Source of the DNA: an uncultured Gammaproteobacteria bacterium
GTDB lineage: Bacteria; Patescibacteriota; Microgenomatia; Levybacterales; GWA1-39-11
Direction of reading: 5' to 3'
Length of the DNA stretch: 64,000 nt
NCBI GenBank assembly: GCA_964448725.1
Contig: CAYVAJ010000002.1
Span: forward strand, 66,587-130,586
Shown piece after piece: positions 15,398 to 38,470 of the stretch. The notes beneath the pieces were generated by a model, which made no database searches, was not told where the DNA came from, and worked only from the letters and a program-made list of their open reading frames with translations. The stretch's first letter is position 1; each line of letters begins with the position of its first letter. The translations under genes and the position numbers were made by a program.

Positions 15398-15652
15398 ATG
15401 TACTGTATGTACATTTTACAGAGAGAGGTTGATAATTCCTTTTATATAGGAAGCACGGACAATATTGATAAGAGGATTGATAAGCATAATAAAGGGTATT
15501 CAAGGTACACGAAGAGTAAAAGACCTTGGAAATTAGTGTATAACGAAATTTATAATACTCTTTCAGAGGCAAGAAAACGCGAATATTATTTAAAGTCACT
15601 TAAGAGCAGAACTGCAATAGAAAAGTTAATTAAAATTGGCCCCATCGTCTAG
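15398..15652 (+). CDS. GIY-YIG nuclease-domain protein (YhbQ/UPF0213-like)
   Basis: YILQREVDNSFYIGSTDNIDKRIDKHNKG ... YYLKSL matches the single-domain GIY-YIG family; 3' end overlaps the start of tRNA-Glu by 15 nt. Confidence 0.7.
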   Translation: MYCMYILQREVDNSFYIGSTDNIDKRIDKHNKGYSRYTKSKRPWKLVYNEIYNTLSEARKREYYLKSLKSRTAIEKLIKIGPIV

Positions 15653-15710
15653 AGGCCTAGGACATCAGGTTCTCATCCTGAAAACCGGGATTCGAATTCC
15701 CGTGGGGTCA
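15638..15710 (+). tRNA. tRNA-Glu (anticodon CUC), no encoded CCA
   Basis: hand-folded: acceptor GGCCCCA/TGGGGTC; D-stem GTCT/GGAC; anticodon stem TCAGG/CCTGA with loop TTCTCAT; T-stem CGGGA/TCCCG with loop TTCGAAT; discriminator A. Confidence 0.8.
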
Positions 15711-17160
15711 CTAAAGTTGTTTTATTGCCTGCAAAATCACCGATTAGATTGAAAGGAAGCCCTAAAGTAGCGGTTCCAAATCCTTCGTTGCTAACAGGCA
15801 TGCCACTTGGAAATAACAATGACTGGAACCTTTGTTTGTTCTCCAAATTAGACTCAAACCACAGTGATGCTACATTATCAAAGAGTGTTTCTACTAAAGA
15901 TATTAAGTGGTCTATATTTGTCTCACTCTCTCTGTAGTCTCCACGTTCAATTTCTTTTACAGTAATATTATCGTTTAATTGTTTAACCTGTGATTTATAA
16001 TCCTCATCTGAAACAATACCGTCAAGGTTTTTCTTAAGCAGTTTATCTTTCATATTTTTAAAGTGCATGATTTCTAAATCTATATTTCTAAGAGCTGTCT
16101 CTGCTTCAAGATGTTTCCTCTTCCATACATCACGTACTATTAATTGAAACAGCTTTGAGAGCTCCTGATTTGGCTGTATTGTTTTTATATACTCATAAAA
16201 TAAATTATCTAACTGCTCTTGTCTTACCCTGACAGCTCCGCATATACAATGATAGTAAGAGTATTTTAGACGTCTTCCTTTTGATTTGCTTCCTGTTAGC
16301 CTCTTCCCACAATCTGAACACGTTAGCACGCTTTTAAGTGGAAAGGTGGGATTTTTACTAAAGTGTGGTATAGCTGCTGTAACCGACTTTCCCAAACGTA
16401 TATTGTTTACTGTGTAGAATAATTCTTTACTAACTAATGGCTCGTGGGCTCCTACATGCTCTTCTCCCCACGCTTCAACTACTCCCATGTACAACTTGTT
16501 TGAAAAAATCTTTATCATTAGTTGTGGGGTTATACGTTTATTCTTCTCAGTTCTCAATCCCATCCTATTAAGTTTCTTGCTAATAGAAATGACTGAGTAT
16601 CCACCTTTGGCGTAAGTTTCAAATGCAGTCTTAATATAGGAAGCTCTAGTGTTATCAATAATTAACCCTGCAGGTGAATTTTTATAACCAATAGGAGCTT
16701 TCCAAGGCCAGTGTCCTTGTCGTGCCTTTTCTTTCATACCTTCCTTTGTCCTATCTGAACGAACATCATTGTCAAACTGTGCGATAGAAGAAAAAATGTT
16801 CTCCATTAACTTTCCCGCTGGAGTATCATCAATTTGTTCTGAAACAGACCGGAGTTTTACTCCCACTTTTAGTAATGCTGCTCTTACTGCGCTATGGTCT
16901 GCGGTATTTCTAGAGAACCTATCTAATTTATGGACTAATAAAATGTCTATCTTACCTCTATTTTCGTGACAAAATTTTAGAAGTTTTAGGAGCTGAGTTC
17001 TGTCTGCGGTTTTTGCTGACTCTCCTTGTTCTTGGAATACTTGAACAATATTCCAACCCATTCTCTCTGCGTATTCTTTACACAATTTTTCCTGGTACGT
17101 TAAGCTGTAACCCTCTATTTGTTCTTTTGTGCTGACTCTTGTGTAAAGAATGACATTCAT
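15673..17160 (-). CDS. large serine recombinase (resolvase/invertase catalytic domain, recombinase domain and zinc-ribbon)
   Basis: N-terminus MNVILYTRVSTKEQ with catalytic Ser; ...HKLDRFSRN...; C-terminal CxxC...C zinc-ribbon region; last 12 codons are antisense to the tRNA-Glu T-arm. Confidence 0.85.
   Translation of the reverse strand: MNVILYTRVSTKEQIEGYSLTYQEKLCKEYAERMGWNIVQVFQEQGESAKTADRTQLLKLLKFCHENRGKIDILLVHKLDRFSRNTADHSAVRAALLKVGVKLRSVSEQIDDTPAGKLMENIFSSIAQFDNDVRSDRTKEGMKEKARQGHWPWKAPIGYKNSPAGLIIDNTRASYIKTAFETYAKGGYSVISISKKLNRMGLRTEKNKRITPQLMIKIFSNKLYMGVVEAWGEEHVGAHEPLVSKELFYTVNNIRLGKSVTAAIPHFSKNPTFPLKSVLTCSDCGKRLTGSKSKGRRLKYSYYHCICGAVRVRQEQLDNLFYEYIKTIQPNQELSKLFQLIVRDVWKRKHLEAETALRNIDLEIMHFKNMKDKLLKKNLDGIVSDEDYKSQVKQLNDNITVKEIERGDYRESETNIDHLISLVETLFDNVASLWFESNLENKQRFQSLLFPSGMPVSNEGFGTATLGLPFNLIGDFAGNKTTLVTPREFESRFSG
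15695..15711 (+). repeat. attL-like 17-bp direct repeat (tRNA-Glu 3' end)
   Basis: exact copy of 21704-21720. Confidence 0.7.
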
Positions 17161-26562: not shown

Positions 26563-26601
26563 AAAGAAAAGGTGTGAACCTAAACCACCTGGAAGGTGGA
26601 A
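26563..26601 (+). promoter_or_regulatory. conserved upstream motif, copy 1: AAAGAAAAGGTGTGAACCTAAACCACCTGGAAGGTGGAA, 57 nt upstream of a TATAAT
   Basis: near-identical copy at 38298-38336; contains the palindrome CCACCTGGAAGGTGG; TATAAT at 26658-26663. Confidence 0.6.
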
Positions 26602-26865
26602 TAATAAGATACGAAAGAGAGGTGAGGTAGAAATTTCGCTAGGTAGCAAAATAATCCTATAATATTGATTTTTCACTCTTTTTTTGCTAAAATAATACTG
26701 ATTTATCTAATAGTTGTTGAGTAATTACTTGGCATGAGTATTTGATGAATCAAGTTGCTCTTTAAGAGATTAAGAATCATTAGTACAGTAGATGGCGTAG
26801 TACCTATATTAGCTATATGTAGTACGCCGTCTATTGGCGCAGCAGTTTATTGCATGGAGGCATGA

Positions 26866-27198: not shown

Positions 27199-27383
27199 TT
27201 TTTTCTCTTTTCATTACTCCCTGCTGGGTTTTAAAAGCTTAGCAGGGAGTCTCTATTTAGAAGTATAAATTTTCATGATCACTGAATAAAAATTTCTTGT
27301 TTTTATGTAAGTATATCTTGATTTTGATTGCAATCTGGTGAAGTAATTGGGTATGATAGAATTGGGCGATTTAACAGTTACGA

Positions 27384-30300
27384 ATGGATCCAGATTCTTT
27401 AACCAGAAGTAAAAAAACTTCATCCTTTTTAAAACTTTACGGTAAGATTGCAGCATACAGCTTGGCTGTTGTGTTTGGAATCATAACTGTAGTGTATATT
27501 ATTGATTGGAACTCAGAGTCGGAAGATCCAACAACTCCTACAAAAACAAATCCAATGCCCGAAGTTTTGGCTGAAGCAGACAGTTTATTTGAGTCAGGGG
27601 GTGTAGTATTTGGTATTCCAACAAATTTTACTGCAGCAGCAACATTTGGTTCAGACATTACCGTTGCTCAAGATACTAATCTTGAAGGGGATTTGTATTA
27701 CAGAGGAGATTTAGTTGATCTTTCAATAATTGTCGATGGATTGGAAATAGACTCAGACTCGCTTTCAACCATCCTGGATGAAGGTGTTGGAATTAGTATC
27801 ACAGGTGATGAAGTACTGCAGATAAATAATACTGGTGTACTGTCATTTAATGGCCTTACCGGTGATGTTGTCTATGAGATTGAAGAACATAATATGTTTA
27901 AAAATATTCTTGTGCCTGGTAATGCCACAATTGTAGCAGATTCAACGAATGATTCGTTAACATTTATTCCTGGTGACGGAATTTCTCTTGCGACAGATGC
28001 GACTGGTAAAAGTATCACAATAACAAGCTCAAGCGCCTCTAGTGGTGTTAATACAATTACTGGCATACCAAATCAAGTTATTGTTACAAGACTTGGTCAG
28101 GATGTTATACTCTCACTCCCTCAAGATTTTCATACAGCTGCGAGTGTTACATTTTCTGAAATGACTTTGGCAGATCCAATTACTTCTGCTAATGTACTTT
28201 CATTTACTTCAAGCGGGCGTATCTCCACATTAAATAATGCTGATTTACTCCTCGGGAGTAATAGTACTGGAAATATACAATTCATATCAAAGGGAGCCAC
28301 ATCATTGTTGCTTAATGGATCAGACTTGGTTGCAAGCGGTTCGCTTACTGGAGTCACAGATTTTAGTGCCTCAGGTGAGATAGAACTTACATCACTTGCT
28401 AATGGAATTGTGCAAGCGCAAGGATATACATTAACCAGTGGACCTATCAATCTTGCAAGCAGTAACCACGTATCAGGAATTTTATCCGCAGAAAATGGCG
28501 GAACTGGTACTGATAAGACACCATTGGATGGACAAATATTAATTGGTAGCGGTCACACAAAAAGTTATGAACCGAGACATTTAAGTGTGGGTACTGGTAT
28601 TTCTGTAACAAGAAACCCCTATTCGTTAACTCTTACAAATAGCGGAGTAACAAAAATTGCTGGAGGAGTGAGGCATATTTTGGTGAATGGATCATATTCA
28701 CCAACAGGACTGACAGGTGATGTTACATTAACATTACCCCAGATACTTGATACTGTAGCCTCACCAACATTTGCAGCGTTGCGGCTCACCTCACATGAAG
28801 ATATTCTTACCTTTACTGCAGAATCAGGAGATTTAGCCTATCTCCAGATAGGTGAGCTTACACAGAATAGGAATTACACTCTCCCAGATGAATCAGGTAC
28901 TTTTTGTCTTACTTCAGGTAACTGTGTTGGAATTGGTGGAGGGCTTGTCGGAACCGGTACTGCCAACTATATTCCTAAATACTCAAATGCAAATACACTT
29001 ACGCCATCACTCATTTATGATGATGGATCAAGTGTGGGAGTTGGAACAACGCTCCCTTTGCTGGGAGTAGCACTTGATGTGAATGGTTCTCTTCGCATTG
29101 GAGTTGCAAGAGGCACATATGACATTTTGAACACTGTACCTGCACAGGGAGATCCATTGGCTTCATTATTCTGGGGAGATAGAACACTCTGTGATTCTAG
29201 TGGGAGTTGTCAGGGGACAGCAGGTGCAGGAGTTGAGAGCATGGGGACAGATGGATATATTGCTCTTTTTTCTAACAGCGGGAATACTCTCGCGAACTCT
29301 CTTATCTATGATTCAGGATCTGCTGTTGGGATTGGGACAACTACACTCACAGGATTTATTACGATTTCAGGAAGTAGTGAAAATTCAGCACTCTCCATCA
29401 ATCAGACGAACTCAGTAGGGGATATTATCAGTGCGTCAATTGAAGGGGAAGAGAAGATGATTCTAACCAGTGTCGGTGATCTGGATTTGGTGAGTGGGGT
29501 ATATAAAAATAAAGGAAATTCAGGTGCAACAGTAGGAGGATATTCTTGTGTAACAACAAGTGGTGGTATTGTTACCGGAAGCGGAGCATGTCCTGTAGAT
29601 CCATCTGCTACGTTGTGGGAATCACAAGGAAGTCTTACCTTTGCAAAAAATACGAATCATAATTTTGCACTTGGTGGTACAACCGTAAATAATGCAAAGT
29701 TCGCAGTATTAAATATAGATTCTGGTGATCCGACTATTTGGTTGAGAAGTTCTCCTACCCAAACTTTGTCAATTACCTCAAGCGGTACTTTTAAAACAAT
29801 TAACGATGCAAATATTACACTCGAATCAGGTGAAGATATTGTACTCAAACCAGGCAGTGGCGATATTGTTGTAGAAGGTAAATTAGTAACTCCAGAAAGC
29901 TCAGATTTGATAGTGGAACCTGAAGGGTCATTTCATGTTAGACCTCACGGACAGCAGGTATTGAGTGTTTCAACAGATGGAGTGGGAGTTAATACTACAA
30001 TTTCGCGTGGGGCATTTACTATAAAAGAACTGTCAAGTTTCCCAACACAAGGAGAAGGGGAGGGAACTCCTGATAATAATTTGATTTTAGATCCTGCAGA
30101 CAGTAATTTCTCATCTAATACTGGACATTGGACCTTATGGTCTGGATGGTCGATTAGTGGAGGAAGATTAACATATAGCGGAGGTATTGCTACTGCATCT
30201 TTAGAAAACCAATATATAGGCAATTATATTGAAGCCGGTAAAACCTATACAGTGAAATTTGATTTATTGGAAACAACTTCTCCAGGGGCGATTGGTATCC

Positions 30301-32168
30301 AAGTTGGGAATGCACAAAGTGGTATGATTTGGGCAGATATGCCTCCATATGATTATGGGACAAAAACATCTGTTATTACTCCCACATCGTCTGGAAATTT
30401 ACATATATATGCAAATAATGGATGGCAAGGCTCAATTACAAATATAAGAATAACTTCCCCAGGTATAGAGCCACCTCCATCTACCCCACCTTCACCAGAT
30501 CCATCAGGACCAGGTCTTGTGCTTGTTAGTAGCGATGGTGCCTTAACCCCACTTGAGATGAGAGCAGGAGGAAGCGGACTATCCAACACATTTGTAGGAT
30601 ACTCTGTAGGTGGATTAAATGAATCAGGAACACATAATGCAGGGTTTGGGGCAGAAGCGCTCTATAGTTTATCACTAGGAGATTACAACACTGCTATTGG
30701 ATCTGAGGCGTTATATAACAATCTCTCAGGTTTGGACAATGTTGCATTAGGATATAAATCAGGATACCACTTAAGTGGTGGATCTGGAAATGTATTTGTT
30801 GGCTCAAATGCAGGGCCATCAAGTTCTGCTGAATTATCTAATCAATTATATATTGCAAATGCTGCAGGAAATCCTCTTATTTGGGGAGATTTCAGTGAAA
30901 AAATGGTGGGAATAAATCTTGCAGATACTACATCTGCAAATAATACGTTAAGTGTTGCTGGTAGTTTGTGTGTAACTGCAACGGGAGTATGTGAAAATAA
31001 TTCTGATGGAACGATTTATACCACCAACACGGTAGTAACAGGGGCAGATGTTGCAGAAAATTATGTGTCTGCTCAGCAGTTACATCCTGGAGATGTCGTG
31101 AGTATGGCTAACAATGGTAATTCTCAAGCAGTAGTAAAAGCACATGCTGCATCCAATACTTTGCTTGGTGTCGTTTCAACAGCTCCTGGTCTCACACTTA
31201 ATTCTGATGCGAGAACAGATAAGGTACATAAATATATATACCCAATCGCTTTAAATGGAAGAGTTCCGACAAACGTAAGTACAGAAAATGGGTTAATTTC
31301 AGTAGGTGACCCGCTTACCGTTGGCTCTACTCCAGGAGTAGCAGTAAAAGCAATAAACTCGGGATATATTATTGGACGTGCACTTGAATCATATTCTGGA
31401 TCAGGGACTGGTACGATAATAGTATATGCTAATGCAGGTTGGTACGCACCGTTGATTGTAAATGGTGATGGAAATATCGTCTCTGATTCTGAACTTGTGA
31501 TGAATACAAATAATGAGTTTTCTCTATTATCTATAAAGGGTCTACCTTCAACAGATGATACATATGAGGAATCACTACAGACTTTGGATGCAAAGATTTC
31601 AGGACTTGAAAAAAAAATCCAAGAGCTTGAAAAAAGTCTGAATCTAATCGAAGAGATTAAAAATTCTGATACAATGCCTCGATCTAAAGAAAGCAGTGAA
31701 TTATTGGATGGATTAGGTGAAATTTCTCTAGAATCTGCTTCTATTGCAGGTTCGTTAAGAGTAGAAGCACTGTATCTTGATGGAAATGGGAGTATTAGTA
31801 CACAAGATACTCCGCTTCGGCTTCAAGCAAATAGTACTCACAATATTGTGATGTTTGATGGAAGTATCATATTTGCTGCAAACGGTGATATTTCAACTTC
31901 AGGTACAGTCAAAGCAAAAAAAATTGACATTGATACAAGTGATGAAGAAGCAGCTTCAATCGGAGTTGGTACAATAAAAGAAGGTGAAAAATCAGTTACC
32001 GTCAACACAAAAGCAGTGACTGAAAAATCAAATATATTTATTACACCAAAGACGTTATTTCCCGGGATGATCGCGGTAACAGAACAGACAGAGAATGAGT
32101 CATTTAAAGTTGAAATAGAAAAAGATGCGACAAAAGATATTCTGTTTAACTGGTGGATAGTAAATTAA
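27384..32168 (+). CDS. giant N-terminally membrane-anchored surface fibre protein (1594 aa) with tail-fibre-like repeats
   Basis: single N-terminal TM (AAYSLAVVFGIITVVYII); long Thr/Ser/Gly/Asn-rich beta-type repeats; Pro-rich linker PPPSTPPSPDPSGPG; NTAIG/NVALG-type tail-fibre repeats; coiled-coil segment; C-terminal domain paralogous to the N-domain of the next gene. Confidence 0.7.
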   Translation: MDPDSLTRSKKTSSFLKLYGKIAAYSLAVVFGIITVVYIIDWNSESEDPTTPTKTNPMPEVLAEADSLFESGGVVFGIPTNFTAAATFGSDITVAQDTNLEGDLYYRGDLVDLSIIVDGLEIDSDSLSTILDEGVGISITGDEVLQINNTGVLSFNGLTGDVVYEIEEHNMFKNILVPGNATIVADSTNDSLTFIPGDGISLATDATGKSITITSSSASSGVNTITGIPNQVIVTRLGQDVILSLPQDFHTAASVTFSEMTLADPITSANVLSFTSSGRISTLNNADLLLGSNSTGNIQFISKGATSLLLNGSDLVASGSLTGVTDFSASGEIELTSLANGIVQAQGYTLTSGPINLASSNHVSGILSAENGGTGTDKTPLDGQILIGSGHTKSYEPRHLSVGTGISVTRNPYSLTLTNSGVTKIAGGVRHILVNGSYSPTGLTGDVTLTLPQILDTVASPTFAALRLTSHEDILTFTAESGDLAYLQIGELTQNRNYTLPDESGTFCLTSGNCVGIGGGLVGTGTANYIPKYSNANTLTPSLIYDDGSSVGVGTTLPLLGVALDVNGSLRIGVARGTYDILNTVPAQGDPLASLFWGDRTLCDSSGSCQGTAGAGVESMGTDGYIALFSNSGNTLANSLIYDSGSAVGIGTTTLTGFITISGSSENSALSINQTNSVGDIISASIEGEEKMILTSVGDLDLVSGVYKNKGNSGATVGGYSCVTTSGGIVTGSGACPVDPSATLWESQGSLTFAKNTNHNFALGGTTVNNAKFAVLNIDSGDPTIWLRSSPTQTLSITSSGTFKTINDANITLESGEDIVLKPGSGDIVVEGKLVTPESSDLIVEPEGSFHVRPHGQQVLSVSTDGVGVNTTISRGAFTIKELSSFPTQGEGEGTPDNNLILDPADSNFSSNTGHWTLWSGWSISGGRLTYSGGIATASLENQYIGNYIEAGKTYTVKFDLLETTSPGAIGIQVGNAQSGMIWADMPPYDYGTKTSVITPTSSGNLHIYANNGWQGSITNIRITSPGIEPPPSTPPSPDPSGPGLVLVSSDGALTPLEMRAGGSGLSNTFVGYSVGGLNESGTHNAGFGAEALYSLSLGDYNTAIGSEALYNNLSGLDNVALGYKSGYHLSGGSGNVFVGSNAGPSSSAELSNQLYIANAAGNPLIWGDFSEKMVGINLADTTSANNTLSVAGSLCVTATGVCENNSDGTIYTTNTVVTGADVAENYVSAQQLHPGDVVSMANNGNSQAVVKAHAASNTLLGVVSTAPGLTLNSDARTDKVHKYIYPIALNGRVPTNVSTENGLISVGDPLTVGSTPGVAVKAINSGYIIGRALESYSGSGTGTIIVYANAGWYAPLIVNGDGNIVSDSELVMNTNNEFSLLSIKGLPSTDDTYEESLQTLDAKISGLEKKIQELEKSLNLIEEIKNSDTMPRSKESSELLDGLGEISLESASIAGSLRVEALYLDGNGSISTQDTPLRLQANSTHNIVMFDGSIIFAANGDISTSGTVKAKKIDIDTSDEEAASIGVGTIKEGEKSVTVNTKAVTEKSNIFITPKTLFPGMIAVTEQTENESFKVEIEKDATKDILFNWWIVN

Positions 32169-32169
32169 T

Positions 32170-32976
32170 ATGAACATGACCTGCCTAATCAAAAAAATTG
32201 TATCAACAAAAAATATTCTTTGTCTCACCGCACTGATACTTCTCAGTATGTCGATGTTTACAATACCAACGCTCGCAACAGTCTCCTATGGAATTGCTAA
32301 CCGTATTACCATAGACGATACCAATGTAAGAACAGGGAGTATTGTTTCATCACGTGGAACAGGGGGATTTATTTTAAGCAGCATTCCCTATGACCCTTCG
32401 ATTGTTGGTGTTGTTACGGATAATCCGGCAATTTTAATTCATCTCAGTAATGCACAAGGAGAATATCCGGTTGTCTCAACTGGAAATGCGATGGTAACAG
32501 TATCACTTGAGAATGGATCAATTAAAAAGGGGGACCCTATTACCACTTCTTCTGTAAAAGGGGTGGGAATGAAGGCGACAAAATCAGGGTATGTAGTAGG
32601 TAATGCAACGCAAGATTTTTCTGGTAACAATCCTAACGAGATGCGGGCAATAAATGTAGCAGTCAATATCCGTTATCAGAATCCTAAAATTGATGTTCAA
32701 TCAAAACTTTCTGATATTGCCAATTTATCTGCGGCTGCAGTTTCAGAAGAACCATTAACCGTTTTTAAGTATGTAGTAGCTGGATTTATTATTATCCTCT
32801 CTTTTATTATTGGTTTTTTGACATTTGGAAGAATAGCAGCACGAGGAGTGGATGCGTTAGGAAGAAATCCTTTAGCCATTAAGAGAATTGGATTTGGAAT
32901 CGCGCTTAATGTTATCATAACAGTAGGCATCATTATCTCAGGAATCGGTATTTCTGTTTTCATTTTAAGAATATAG
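32170..32976 (+). CDS. fusion protein: signal peptide, then an extracellular domain, then a C-terminal ATP-synthase c-subunit-like helical hairpin lacking the conserved carboxylate
   Basis: C-terminal 70 aa VVAGFIIILSFIIGFLTFGRIAARGVDALGRNPLAIKRIGFGIALNVIITVGIIISGIGISVFILRI has the c-subunit topology and the R-N-P polar loop, but Asn where the ion-binding Glu/Asp should be; sits in the c-subunit position of the operon. Confidence 0.55.
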   Translation: MNMTCLIKKIVSTKNILCLTALILLSMSMFTIPTLATVSYGIANRITIDDTNVRTGSIVSSRGTGGFILSSIPYDPSIVGVVTDNPAILIHLSNAQGEYPVVSTGNAMVTVSLENGSIKKGDPITTSSVKGVGMKATKSGYVVGNATQDFSGNNPNEMRAINVAVNIRYQNPKIDVQSKLSDIANLSAAAVSEEPLTVFKYVVAGFIIILSFIIGFLTFGRIAARGVDALGRNPLAIKRIGFGIALNVIITVGIIISGIGISVFILRI

Positions 32977-32977
32977 T

Positions 32978-33667
32978 ATGGAACTTATTGTGCTTTTAAT
33001 TACATTAGTCATTACTGCAGGTTTTATTGCTCTCTTCGTTTTTTGGCGCAAACTTAAAATAAAAGAGAAAAGAATTCAAAGAATTGAGTCTAGACTTCAT
33101 CGCCATTCTGTAAAAACAATGGAACAAGTACATCAAAACTCTGAACAGATTCTCCGCGAGTCATTGAGTAAAGCTTCAGATATTATCAAAGATACGAAAA
33201 CGGTGAAAGAAGAAAATGAGAAAAAGCTCGAGGAAGTCTTACAACAGACTGCAAAGCAACATGTAGATATTTTAGAACAGCAGTTGGGGGAAATTTCAGA
33301 TACGTTCGGTGCAGAGTTTGAGAATCTTGAAAAATTGTATGAAAAACAGGCTAAAAAAACATTGTCTAAGATGGAGTCTACTGGAAAAGTTGGATTGGAA
33401 AAATTGGAAAAGGTTTTAGACAAACAAACAGTTTCATTGCAAAATTATCTTAAGCTGAAAGTAGATTCTGAGTTTGAGAAAGCACAACGTGAGATTGATA
33501 ACTACAAAAGGGCTGAATTGAAAAAAGTAGATAAATCAATTCAAGAATTAGTTAAAAAAACTGTTTCTGAAGTGATTGGAAAAAGTATTCCAATGAGTGA
33601 GCATGAAAAGCTCATTATTGCAGCTCTAGATGAAGCAAAACTCGAAGGTATGTTTAATCATGAATAA
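32978..33667 (+). CDS. atpF: F-type ATP synthase subunit b-like (single TM plus long coiled coil)
   Basis: N-terminal TM then about 200 aa of charged coiled coil; position in the operon. Confidence 0.6.
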   Translation: MELIVLLITLVITAGFIALFVFWRKLKIKEKRIQRIESRLHRHSVKTMEQVHQNSEQILRESLSKASDIIKDTKTVKEENEKKLEEVLQQTAKQHVDILEQQLGEISDTFGAEFENLEKLYEKQAKKTLSKMESTGKVGLEKLEKVLDKQTVSLQNYLKLKVDSEFEKAQREIDNYKRAELKKVDKSIQELVKKTVSEVIGKSIPMSEHEKLIIAALDEAKLEGMFNHE

Positions 33668-34127
33668 AGAGGCTTATATCGAAATACTAAAAAATATATA
33701 TACAAAAAAACAAGCTGACACATTTGTTGCAAATATAGATACGCTTATCGCATCTCTTTACAGTAAGGGAAGAACTCTCAATAAAATACAAGCAACTTTT
33801 TCATTGGAGCTCAGTGAGGAAATTATTGAGGTGATGAGAAAAGAAAAAATCTCGTTCAATGATAATGATGCTTGTAAAAAATTTTTTGAATCATTACGAA
33901 AGATCGTATTGGATATACCTACAATTGATCTCACAATTTCGTTTGATCCAACGCTTTCACAAGTCCAGAAAATTTGCCACTGGATTATCAACAATAAAAA
34001 AGAAAAGCATCTTTTACATATAATTGTTGATCCAGGAATAATCGGGGGTGTACAGATAGGATTGGACGGTCGGTACAAAGATAAATCACTGAAAGCTAAG
34101 CTTGGAGATATGACAATTTCCCTATGA
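33660..34127 (+). CDS. atpH: F-type ATP synthase subunit delta (OSCP)
   Basis: C-terminal ...IVDPGIIGGVQIGLDGRYKDKSLKAKL; start chosen at ATG 33660, which overlaps the atpF stop (ATGAATAA); the track ORF starts at 33630. Confidence 0.6.
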   Translation: MNKEAYIEILKNIYTKKQADTFVANIDTLIASLYSKGRTLNKIQATFSLELSEEIIEVMRKEKISFNDNDACKKFFESLRKIVLDIPTIDLTISFDPTLSQVQKICHWIINNKKEKHLLHIIVDPGIIGGVQIGLDGRYKDKSLKAKLGDMTISL

Positions 34128-35596
34128 ACAATTTTTCTCAATATTTGGAAACAACAGGAGAGTATGGTGTGGTTAAGGAGTTGAAGTCTTCGATTGTAAA
34201 GGCTTCAGGTATTCCCAAAGCAAAACTCCATGAATTGGTACTTTTTGAGTCAGGCAAAATGGGACAGGTTTTTTCAGCCAGTCGGGATATTGTCGAGGTT
34301 CTCACGTTCTCAAAAGAGCCAGTAGCAATCGGTGAGAGATTTGTACGAACTAATAGGATGATTTCTGTGCCAGTAGGGGAAAGTCTGCTTGGTACAATTA
34401 TTGATCCTCTAGGATTACCTTTCCCAAACGTAAAAAACTTTAAGAGACCCAAAGAGATGCGTGAGATTTTTGTTGAAGCGCAAAAAATTGATGTACGTGA
34501 GGCAATCAATAAACCTCTTTTGACGGGTGTGAATATTGTTGATTTGTTGGTTCCTTTAGGTATGGGACAAAAAGAGCTTGTTATTGGTGACAGAAAAACC
34601 GGAAAAACTGCGTTCGTGCAAACTACGATGGTTAACCAAATAAAAAATAACAATTGTATTGTTATTTATGCAGGAGTTGCAAGAAAAACTCATGAGATAA
34701 AAAGACTTCATAACTACCTTCTCACTGAGAAGATAATGGATAAAGTGATAATTGTAGCCTCTGATTCTCAGGATTCACCTAGTCTCATTTATTTAACTCC
34801 ATACACTGCAATGACGATTGCTGAGTATTTTCGTGATCAAGGACAGGATGTCTTATTGATTTTGGACGATTTATCTACTCATGCAAAATTTTATCGCGAA
34901 GTTTCTCTCGTGGGTAAAAGATTTCCAGGAAGAGACTCATATCCAGGTGACATTTTTTATGTACATGCTCGACTTTTAGAAAGGACAGGAAACTTTACGC
35001 ATGCAAAAAAAGGGGCTGTTTCAATATCCTGTCTGCCGATAGTCGAGATAGTGGAGGGCGATTTGGCATCGTATATCGCGACTAATATTATGGGTATGAC
35101 AGACGGACATATACTCTTTGATAGCGGTGCATTTCATGATGGAAGACGTCCTGCTATCACTCCCTCTCTCTCTGTGACGAGGGTAGGAAAACAAGCACAA
35201 TCAAAACTCAGGCGTGAGATTACTCAGACCTTAACTGCGTTTTTAGCAGAATATGAAAAAATGCAAAATTATTCCTACTTTGGAGCGGAGCTTTCGGATA
35301 AAGTAAAAGATTTATTAACTACCGGTGATAAAATGTACCGCTTATTTAACCAATCATATAGGCTCATCGTACCTGAAAAAGTGCAGACTATCTTATTTAT
35401 GCTTACGTGGATGAAAGCATTTAATACGTACACCAATGATCAAATTGAGACAGCAATCACAAATCTTTCACACGTTGCAGAGGAAGGTAAATTAGATCAG
35501 CTTTTTAATGCATTAGAGAAAGTAGAGACACTTAAAGAACTTGAGAAATTAGTTGAGATGAATAAAAGTAAAATTCTCAAATTATGCAAAGTTTAA
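34124..35596 (+). CDS. atpA: F1 ATP synthase subunit alpha
   Basis: P-loop GDRKTGKTA; alpha-type N-terminal beta-barrel and nucleotide-binding domain. Confidence 0.85.
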   Translation: MNNFSQYLETTGEYGVVKELKSSIVKASGIPKAKLHELVLFESGKMGQVFSASRDIVEVLTFSKEPVAIGERFVRTNRMISVPVGESLLGTIIDPLGLPFPNVKNFKRPKEMREIFVEAQKIDVREAINKPLLTGVNIVDLLVPLGMGQKELVIGDRKTGKTAFVQTTMVNQIKNNNCIVIYAGVARKTHEIKRLHNYLLTEKIMDKVIIVASDSQDSPSLIYLTPYTAMTIAEYFRDQGQDVLLILDDLSTHAKFYREVSLVGKRFPGRDSYPGDIFYVHARLLERTGNFTHAKKGAVSISCLPIVEIVEGDLASYIATNIMGMTDGHILFDSGAFHDGRRPAITPSLSVTRVGKQAQSKLRREITQTLTAFLAEYEKMQNYSYFGAELSDKVKDLLTTGDKMYRLFNQSYRLIVPEKVQTILFMLTWMKAFNTYTNDQIETAITNLSHVAEEGKLDQLFNALEKVETLKELEKLVEMNKSKILKLCKV

Positions 35597-36495
35597 AAGA
35601 ACTACGTGAAAATATTGCAGCTGTGGGAACTATGGGAATGGTTGTTCAAGCTATGCAGGAAATCTCAGTTATGAAGATGCAAAAAGAGAGAAATGGTGTG
35701 GTGCAGACCCGTTTTTTACTCGATCGATTAACAGATGTTTTTTATGATGTTAAAACAAATTATAGAAAAAAGATATTACGAATTGTCAGGAAAAAAAATA
35801 AAGATCTTGAAGAACATTCTTCTTTTGTTAAAAACGGAAAATCTGCTGCTGTTTTTCTTTCATCAAATGGAAAGCTTCAAGGAGATATTATTGCCAAAGT
35901 TTATAAATACTATGCAGAGTCGATCAAAAATAAAACAGATGATATTTTTATTGTGGGTAAGGTAGGAAAGGCGATGTATGAAAGTAGCGGATCTAAAAAA
36001 CCGATCCAATACTTTGAAATTCCTGATAGTGATGTGAAAATTGATGACTTAAAAGAGTTAGTATTGAGCTTGATCAACTATCAGAAAGTCGATGTATATT
36101 ATGGAAAATTTGAGAGTATTGTTACTCAAAACCCTACTGTTTCAAATGTTTCAGGGCATAAAACAGAAGATAATATTCAGAACTTACTATACAAAGATGT
36201 TGAGGAAAAAGATAAAAATGGAAAAGAAAAAGATGATTATAAACACTTTCTTTTTGAGCCATCACTTGAAAATATTTTGCAGTTTTTTGAAACACAGGTA
36301 TTTGCCTCTCTATTTAAACAAACAGTAAGTGAGGCACAACTTGCGCGCTATGGGTCACGAATACGTTCTATGGGTGAGGCAATTGGACATATTGAGGGCG
36401 AAAAGAAAAATTTATTAAGCAAAGAAAGGAGGACCAAGCAGATGATCAATAATAAGAAACAGTTAGAAAGGCTATCAGGGGTCATGCTTTGGTAA
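35584..36495 (+). CDS. atpG: F1 ATP synthase subunit gamma
   Basis: N-terminus MQSLKELRENIAAVGTMGMVVQAMQ... matches the gamma N-terminal helix; position between alpha and beta. Confidence 0.7.
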   Translation: MQSLKELRENIAAVGTMGMVVQAMQEISVMKMQKERNGVVQTRFLLDRLTDVFYDVKTNYRKKILRIVRKKNKDLEEHSSFVKNGKSAAVFLSSNGKLQGDIIAKVYKYYAESIKNKTDDIFIVGKVGKAMYESSGSKKPIQYFEIPDSDVKIDDLKELVLSLINYQKVDVYYGKFESIVTQNPTVSNVSGHKTEDNIQNLLYKDVEEKDKNGKEKDDYKHFLFEPSLENILQFFETQVFASLFKQTVSEAQLARYGSRIRSMGEAIGHIEGEKKNLLSKERRTKQMINNKKQLERLSGVMLW

Positions 36496-37881
<1,386 letters not shown>

Positions 37882-37884
37882 CAT

Positions 37885-38268
37885 ATGGAAGAAAATAAGC
37901 CAGTTACAAAACAGAGCACACCTCCTCGTGAAGAATTGGCAGTCAATATTGTGAGTGCTGATGAAAATGTATTTGATGGGACTGTATACATGCTTACATC
38001 AAAAAACAATGAAGGAGAGTTTGATGTATTACCCCTCCATACAAATTTTATTACCTTGATTGAGGAAAAAATAATCTTACACAAAACTTCAAAAGAGAAG
38101 AAGGAAATACCGATAACTAATGGGGTACTCAAAGTAGCAGAAAATCAGGTGAGTATTATCTTAGGACCGTTTGTCGGTGCAGACCTATTACCAGAAGACA
38201 TACTTCAATCGTCAACACGTTCAGTAGGTTCAAAAATAGATAAGATTAAAAAACTGTTTGTTGACTAA
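37885..38268 (+). CDS. atpC: F1 ATP synthase subunit epsilon
   Basis: N-terminal beta-sandwich pattern LAVNIVSADENVFDGTVYMLTSKNNEGEFDVLPLH. Confidence 0.75.
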   Translation: MEENKPVTKQSTPPREELAVNIVSADENVFDGTVYMLTSKNNEGEFDVLPLHTNFITLIEEKIILHKTSKEKKEIPITNGVLKVAENQVSIILGPFVGADLLPEDILQSSTRSVGSKIDKIKKLFVD

Positions 38269-38297: not shown

Positions 38298-38336
38298 AAA
38301 GAAAAGGTGTGAACTTAAACCACCTGGGAGGTGGAA
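38298..38336 (+). promoter_or_regulatory. conserved upstream motif, copy 2: AAAGAAAAGGTGTGAACTTAAACCACCTGGGAGGTGGAA, 58 nt upstream of a TATAAT
   Basis: matches 26563-26601 at 37 of 39 positions; TATAAT at 38394-38399. Confidence 0.6.
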
Positions 38337-38470
38337 CTTTTAATACCAAAATTGAAGTGATGAATATAATATCCGCTCCTGTAGATATAAACCTATAATA
38401 TTGTGGAAAATATTCTTTTAGTGTATAATACCCGCTATTGCTCGTTAACAGTATAGTTTAAGGAGGGATC

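Follow-up and report, generated by a model that had tools for sequence, protein, structure and literature searches.

The C-terminal domain of gp12, the pre-neck appendage protein of phage phi29 (PDB ids: 3GQH, 3SUC; Pfam PF11962), is an intramolecular chaperone that occupies the very end of the chain and is released from it autoproteolytically (PMC4690869). A review of decoration proteins classes such folds, that of the phi29 appendage included, as β-tulips, most of which are trimers (PMC7602432). The fold also occurs in capsid decoration and cement proteins (lambda gpD, the base of phi29 gp8.5, HFTV1 8QSY, TW1 gp56 5WK1 and the Pam3 cement protein). The endosialidase-type chaperone Peptidase_S74 (K1F, T5 pb1; PMC4690869) follows a similar logic, in that a C-terminal trimerizing chaperone cuts itself off its fiber, but it has another fold and a Ser-Lys catalytic site. 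Here we describe a domain of the gp12 type in a cellular setting, a 64,000-nucleotide stretch of DNA from a member of the Microgenomatia (contig CAYVAJ010000002.1, positions 66,587 to 130,586; hereafter the window). The domain is present in two adjacent genes on the + strand. The first encodes a giant fiber protein of 1594 residues (27384–32168; open reading frame (ORF) list and translation). The second, which is the first gene of an F-type ATPase cluster, encodes a 268-residue protein with a hairpin resembling subunit c (the c-like protein, 32170–32976).

A single homologous β-tulip domain in two adjacent genes

Residues ~1222–1365 of the fiber (31047–31478, + strand) are homologous to residues ~39–172 of the c-like protein (32284–32685, + strand). 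In a BLASTP comparison of the whole proteins, fiber residues 1259–1339 align with c-like residues 77–152 at 38% identity over 82 residues (E = 1e-11 with compositional adjustment), and the remaining segments all have E > 2. A hidden Markov model (HMM) trained solely on the N-terminal domain of 16 c-like homologs finds fiber residues ~1228–1342 with E = 3e-20, and hhalign aligns the fiber-type profile with the 65-sequence profile of the c-like family over 125 columns (probability 99.7%, E = 4.3e-26). An earlier note on this DNA, made by eye, had proposed that segments 31050–31440 (fiber residues 1223–1352) and 32281–32680 (c-like residues 38–170) are paralogous at 35–40% identity. All peptide blocks that it quoted are found in the translations of ORFs 27384..32168 and 32170..32976, its coordinates fit the domain, the identity of the core falls within its range, and the paralogy is borne out by the BLASTP, HMM and hhalign values. 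The same comparisons of segment with segment, which are significant, dispose of its worry that the similarity might be due only to Thr/Ser/Gly composition. Although G, S, T and V are abundant in both proteins, a chance or compositional resemblance of two Gly/Ser/Thr-rich segments is ruled out for all practical purposes by the composition-adjusted BLASTP (E = 1e-11) and profile–profile (E = 4e-26) values, and by a fold and top structural matches that are identical in the two copies.

The AlphaFold2 model of the c-like protein (268 residues, 65-sequence alignment) has a mean predicted local distance difference test score (pLDDT) of 89.5 and consists of an N-terminal helix, a β domain (residues 40–170), a short helix and a hairpin. 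In the model of fiber residues 1190–1594, which was made independently, the domain is well defined (pLDDT 76–95). The structures ranked highest for the fiber model are 3gqh_A (13.2), 8qsy_JI (12.2), 9ocb_H (10.6) and 6qyy_A (9.8), and the order is the same for the c-like model. The fold is thus that of the gp12 C-terminal fragment. A comparison of the fiber-type profile with gp12 in hhalign gives E = 3.4e-6 (probability 87.8%, 77 columns), and the alignment starts exactly at the cleavage motif described below.

Sequence searches of Pfam, NCBIfam, PHROGs and the PDB with the domain returned only sub-threshold hints (Phage_cement_2, XM1_gp53, Peptidase_G2 in relatives, and phrog_6427). The similarity to Phage_cement_2 and XM1_gp53 is marginal (E ~0.005–0.009). 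Peptidase_G2 (PF11962) does not match the window segments and remains below threshold in the relatives P0126 and P0127 (P0126 scores 24.3 bits against a cut-off of 25). The shared segment, which the earlier note had left without a family, is a β-tulip of the phi29 gp12/Peptidase_G2 intramolecular-chaperone type. Within the gp12-type family, the fiber copy is most aptly placed as a divergent member.

Unlike gp12, the fiber is a cellular, membrane-anchored protein 1594 residues long. The c-like copy departs further from gp12, as it lacks both catalytic residues and is N-terminal in a membrane protein. With the capsid decoration proteins only the fold is held in common; in the window, one copy is joined to a membrane hairpin and the other forms part of a fiber. 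The neighboring genes do not provide a phage capsid context, being cellular (the ATPase, a Peptidase_M50 gene, Lon and histidine kinases). Some distant fiber homologs carry PF13884 instead, and the window fiber does not.

Cleavage motif and origin of the c-like copy

In the retrieved gp12 sequence the chaperone starts at ...TW-S691|D692-F-A-E695-Y-F. A catalytic role of D692 and E695 is reported by Xiang et al. (2009), and in the MEROPS classification these residues make up the active-site dyad of family G2. At the position of this motif the fiber reads ...T-G-A1221|D1222-V-A-E1225-N-Y ('GADVAENY' against 'WSDFAEYF' in gp12), so that D1222 and E1225 align with D692 and E695 as an Asp/Glu dyad at the cleavage boundary. 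The fiber tetrapeptide D1222-V-A-E1225 (31047–31058, + strand) is accordingly a predicted autoproteolysis motif, equivalent to S691|D692-F-A-E695. Related giant proteins of Microgenomates have ADIAEWY, ADYAEYF, SDFAEYF (locus L018) or PDFAEYY at this place, and D-x-[AMS]-E is retained by 88 of the 91 fiber-type domains with a covered N-terminus. Self-cleavage of the fiber is predicted to occur between A1221 and D1222 and would free residues 1222–1594, as in gp12. The D-x-A-E motif is diagnostic and predicts processing sites in giant fibers.

The equivalent of the D-x-A-E site in the c-like protein, located by alignment with the fiber and gp12, is G41-I-A-N44 (32290–32301, + strand), in which both catalytic residues are replaced. 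Among 191 non-redundant members of the c-like family, the Asp position is occupied by G (175 members), S (7) or A (6) and in no case by Asp (0/191). The Glu position is held most often by N (96), followed by T (25), R (17) and S (14). To judge from these alignments, the c-like copy is related to the peptidase by descent but is itself non-catalytic and no peptidase.

The module as such is very common. An exhaustive search of 1.84 billion representative proteins with the fiber-type profile gave 30,090 matches, 24,726 of them at E ≤ 1e-10, and in many cases the matching protein runs to thousands of residues and has the domain close to its C-terminal end. A single-sequence search with the fiber domain, which is limited by shared words, found 15 matches only, and a metagenome scan for the module with a 5-sequence alignment yielded 80 loci. 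The self-cleaving β-tulip chaperone at the ends of giant bacterial fibers is a very large module that current family libraries describe poorly.

Members of the c-like family, found in Roizman-, Levy- and Daviesbacteria as well as in WWE3, are 45–50% identical and have a G-I-A-N motif of their own. These homologs also place the source organism in the Microgenomates group of the Patescibacteria. In the window, 1.2 kb separates the two copies, which are in neighboring genes, an arrangement that would suit a recent local duplication or gene conversion. However, such an event is very improbable and can be set aside given the breadth of the family, its conserved diagnostic motif, and the HMM scores: the window fiber scores 65 bits with the c-like HMM, against a median of 70.6 bits for unrelated fibers. 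The c-like copy is not a local duplicate; it goes back to the early recruitment of a widespread fiber module into a phylum-wide family. A β-tulip in a fiber is ordinary; an inactivated β-tulip on a rotor-like subunit of an ATPase, one that has also lost the proton-binding residue, is very unusual.

The c-like protein, its ATPase and the neighboring fiber genes

The c-like protein consists of a signal peptide, the inactivated β-tulip, an amphipathic helix and a hairpin similar to subunit c. The signal peptide or N-terminal helix (residues 1–36, 32170–32277, + strand), which is supported by the alignment and by a helix at residues 4–28 of the AlphaFold2 model, ends in ...PTLA at a putative cleavage site, and AxA-type sites are found at the equivalent place in homologs. 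The helical hairpin (residues 195–268, 32752–32973, + strand) is formed by helices 195–232 and 234–267, which are connected by the invariant loop A-L-G-R232-N-P-L-A; N247 is also invariant. In c subunits the termini are outside and the loop is inside, and the canonical R-N-P loop contacts gamma and epsilon. Because of this topology, the β-tulip of the c-like protein should be extracytoplasmic and face outward from the membrane. The hairpin with its polar loop and the position of the gene ahead of b are those of subunit c. The Glu or Asp of helix 2 is missing: none of the 191 family members has an Asp or Glu in the membrane-helix columns, and the canonical ion-binding position (R+20) is occupied by V, I or L. 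In a weak profile match with the c2 subunit of A. woodii, a Val stands at the ion-binding Glu. Curated c-subunit models do not recognize the protein, as there is no match to Pfam ATP-synt_C, NCBIfam NF005521 gives 16.4 bits against a cut-off of 122, and the PDB profile 4bem_A gives E = 4.1. Compared to the F-type subunit c (AtpE), the c-like protein thus has an N-terminal extension of ~170 residues (signal peptide and β-tulip) and lacks the essential helix-2 Glu/Asp, a nearby subunit a and a family-model match. No description of an unusual c subunit or ATPase of Microgenomates or the candidate phyla radiation (CPR) was found in the literature, whose coverage here is incomplete, so that an earlier description may exist. 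What is new is a c-subunit-like protein that carries an extracellular β-tulip, has no ion-binding residue and is conserved across a phylum-level group; the fiber side, a gp12-type self-cleaving chaperone, is of a known kind.

Several genomes depart from a single copy of this gene. Some Microgenomates have two c-like genes (L032 and L068 in one metagenome-assembled genome (MAG), L028 and L079 in another), the MAG JBPOIT01 has two complete c-like ATPase operons, and at locus L055 (1845–7279) a second c-like gene lies on the opposite strand directly after gamma. Many c-like loci (L005–L084) are titled 'uncultured Gammaproteobacteria', one 'Sulfotelmatobacter' and two 'Saccharibacteria'; their gene content is that of Microgenomates, and the labels are probably placeholders or wrong.

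Downstream of the c-like gene, Pfam identifies genes for b-like (32978–33667), delta/OSCP (33630–34127), alpha (34124–35596), gamma (35584–36495), beta (36505–37881) and epsilon (37885–38268) subunits, all on the + strand. The catalytic motifs of the beta subunit are intact (Walker A GGAGVGKT, GERTREG and Walker B). A scan with one genome per species gave 80 c-like loci. ATPase genes follow the c-like gene directly at 74 of the 79 testable loci (in the order c-like–b–delta–alpha–gamma–beta–epsilon), and 54 of these 74 show the full set of b, alpha, gamma, beta and epsilon. A subunit a beside c, as in an F-type ATP synthase, was found neither among the ORFs of the window that were scanned against Pfam and NCBIfam or flagged as having multiple transmembrane segments, nor, as an AtpB-like protein or a recurrent family with multiple transmembrane segments, within ±10 kb at the 80 loci. 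Searches in phmmer with E. coli AtpB and AtpE and the I. tartaricus c subunit gave nothing significant. With no carboxylate and no subunit a, canonical ion translocation by this enzyme is unlikely, and the F-type ATPase of Microgenomates looks, from its gene content, non-canonical as an ion pump. The 268-residue protein could also be an independent membrane-anchored β-tulip, such as a fiber-assembly or anchoring factor, and not an ATPase subunit at all, the real a and c subunits being encoded elsewhere. We consider this alternative improbable.

Fiber genes recur next to this operon. At 25 of the 39 loci where both flanks are testable, a giant ORF of the fiber family lies within 1.5 kb of the operon on one side or the other; counted by side, it is found upstream at 20 of 59 testable loci and downstream at 13 of 48. 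All four orientations of the neighbor occur: upstream co-directional (the window, L005 and L040), upstream divergent, downstream co-directional and downstream convergent. At many loci the homology of the flanking giants to the window fiber includes its N-terminal region (residues ~50–212). On a rough estimate that assumes 20 giant genes per 1-Mb genome, chance would account for at most ~6% adjacency, far below 25 of 39. The earlier note had suggested looking for the same pair of domains in homologous loci, and a fiber-type domain is indeed present in each adjacent giant whose distal C-terminus is visible (the window, L005, L040, L001, L007, L013, L018, P0141/L087, L108 and L112). In WWE3 (L003/L022 1–3678, JAAXWF010000001.1), a c-like gene is divergently paired with a fiber-family giant 128 nucleotides away, with no ATPase genes nearby; this c-like gene carries the NCBI annotation 'ATP synthase F0 subunit C'.

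The place that the fiber takes at other loci, directly upstream of the c-like gene, is filled in one subclade by a single ORF or a pair of ORFs of ~610–665 residues (L044 7891–9864, L072 6146–9952, L058 4630–8482, L059 5936–9772 and L070 5949–9744). Pfam finds GH130 (β-1,4-mannooligosaccharide phosphorylase) domains in four of those ORFs (from L044, L072 and L058).

In the window, the stop codon of the fiber gene and the ATG of the c-like gene are 1 nucleotide apart. A terminator-like 16-bp stem-loop (27216–27250) and a promoter-like site (27328–27357) precede the fiber gene on the + strand, and a terminator-like hairpin (38320–38334) follows epsilon; these features come from consensus scans only, which found no terminator between the two genes. 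The segment 27384–38268 therefore looks like, and is likely to be, one transcription unit.

The fiber-family genes are conserved neighbors of the operon, and the ATPase and the fibers therefore probably work together. The functional tie between them that the earlier note had proposed is in this way independently supported by the neighborhood (25 of 39 loci, in four orientations) and, in the window, by the 1-nucleotide gap with no terminator. The argument on which that note had relied, namely that a module shared by adjacent genes implies interaction of their products, is weak. The module is ubiquitous and shows no similarity specific to adjacency, and the c-like copy is old, so that sharing alone does not argue for interaction. 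The case for a functional tie rests on synteny, not on the shared module.

The main competing explanation is that the two proteins have only common ancestry of this domain: the β-tulip would be a generic building block of CPR fibers, the fiber and the ATPase would not touch, and the adjacency of their genes would stem from regulation or export that envelope proteins have in common, or from genome compaction. A number of observations weigh in this direction and against coupling. The module occurs in 30,090 clusters, and about 6 of the 80 module-bearing metagenomic loci adjoin ATPase genes. With the c-like HMM, the domains of ATPase-adjacent fibers score no better than those of other fibers (medians of 66.6 and 70.6 bits, respectively). 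The fiber homolog P0139 (2204 residues) is located beside secA, not beside the ATPase, although its 406-kb contig also carries a c-like gene. No fiber-family ORF is adjacent to the operon at 14 of the 39 testable loci, and the c-like gene stands without ATPase genes at 5 loci. In many cases the neighbor is oriented divergently or convergently, which means that co-transcription is not the rule. Two further points count against the explanation preferred below: the absence of subunit a holds for ±10 kb around the operon only, and the fiber domain is followed by ~230 residues (a coiled coil and a β-sandwich), whereas the gp12 chaperone is terminal. Against common ancestry as the whole explanation stand an adjacency at 25 of 39 loci that far exceeds the ~6% estimated for chance and survives all four orientations, and the c-like gene of WWE3, which keeps a divergent fiber neighbor even without ATPase genes. 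We regard ancestry without contact as possible but less than likely. With reasonable confidence, the best explanation is a gp12-type domain that would cleave in the fiber, is dead on the c-like protein after an old recruitment, and belongs to a system in which fibers and ATPase are coupled.

Fiber architecture, flanking elements and possible mechanism

The fiber is laid out as an N-terminal anchor, long β-rich repeats, repeats similar to those of tail spikes, the shared domain, a coiled coil and a C-terminal β-sandwich. The anchor, a transmembrane segment predicted from hydrophobicity only, comprises residues 19–40 (YGKIAAYSLAVVFGIITVVYII, 27438–27503, + strand), and related giants have comparable N-terminal hydrophobic segments. 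Residues 1064–1236 match a tail spike in PHROGs (E = 1.2e-5). The long helix or coiled coil (residues ~1393–1427, 31560–31664, + strand) corresponds to H204–238 in the AlphaFold2 model of residues 1190–1594 and is modeled with moderate confidence. The β-sandwich (residues ~1525–1594, 31956–32165, + strand) resembles the C-terminal domain of the K1 capsule lyase tailspike. The homologs P0137, P0138, L005 and L040 are 56–62% identical to the window fiber. Together, we infer that the protein is a trimeric surface fiber anchored in the membrane by its N-terminus.

At a set of loci (L094, L100, L139/L140; L093, L104, L135, L144), there are either tandem arrays of two or three fiber genes, each with its own β-tulip domain, or single giants that contain two copies of the domain. 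At L013 (1–9786) and L039 (3–9457, minus strand), the giant neighbor consists of three abutting long ORFs (e.g. 1745, 1117 and 396+ residues) with the β-tulip in the last one. These could be consecutive fiber genes, or one gene split by a frameshift or an assembly error.

An intergenic element of ~100 nucleotides is present in two copies (26563–26667 and 38298–38402) that bracket the segment made up of ORF110, the fiber gene and the ATPase genes. A block of ~40 nucleotides common to both copies contains the palindrome CCACCTNCCAGGTGG, which has 2 matches where 0 are expected. CCTATAATATTG follows ~55 nucleotides further on, and the element may be a cassette of terminator and promoter. Further upstream, a gene for a large serine recombinase (Resolvase/Recombinase/Zn-ribbon; 15673–17160, minus strand) overlaps the 3' end of a tRNA-Glu gene (15638–15711) and is followed by ~10 kb of mostly hypothetical genes (17.4–27 kb). 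The recombinase and this region may be an integrated element that ends just before the fiber gene.

The β-tulip of the fiber would nucleate trimerization and folding of the fiber and then cut itself off at A1221|D1222. The c-like protein would form a membrane-embedded, rotor-like part of the ATPase, and its oligomer would display a crown of non-cleaving β-tulip domains on the outside. The most economical model of a contact is that this dead crown would serve as a docking or oligomerization module. More speculatively, the crown might bind the fiber end or the fiber β-tulip, mimicking the cleaved chaperone. A far-reaching version of this model, which we put forward as doubtful, is that the enzyme is a converted F-type ATPase in which a carboxylate-free rotor turns without subunit a, the crown engages giant fibers, and ATP hydrolysis is passed to them mechanically.

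The nearest analogy to such a machine is the F1-like gliding motor of Mycoplasma mobile, in which an F1-type ATPase without a proton channel powers the giant surface 'leg' proteins Gli349 and Gli521 (PMC11864180, PMC8406192). The comparison with the Microgenomates system is one of analogy and implies no family membership. The Mycoplasma motor belongs to a wall-less or minimal bacterium, has paralogous alpha and beta subunits arranged in cytoplasmic chains, and is without a c-like ring, b, delta, epsilon or a link to a β-tulip. The operon described here does not conform to the Mycoplasma-type F1-like X0 ATPase, as delta (OSCP), epsilon, gamma, b-like and c-like genes are all present. The Microgenomates version is set apart by four unusual features: a carboxylate-free c-like protein, an extracellular β-tulip, no subunit a nearby, and a giant fiber as neighbor. 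They make an alternative testable, namely that the enzyme is coupled to the surface fibers that these epibionts probably use for holding hosts. If the doubtful, far-reaching version of the model is true, the ATPase would provide a drive for the fibers in assembly, tensioning, movement or host attachment, and the CPR would have a rotary surface machine of a new kind.

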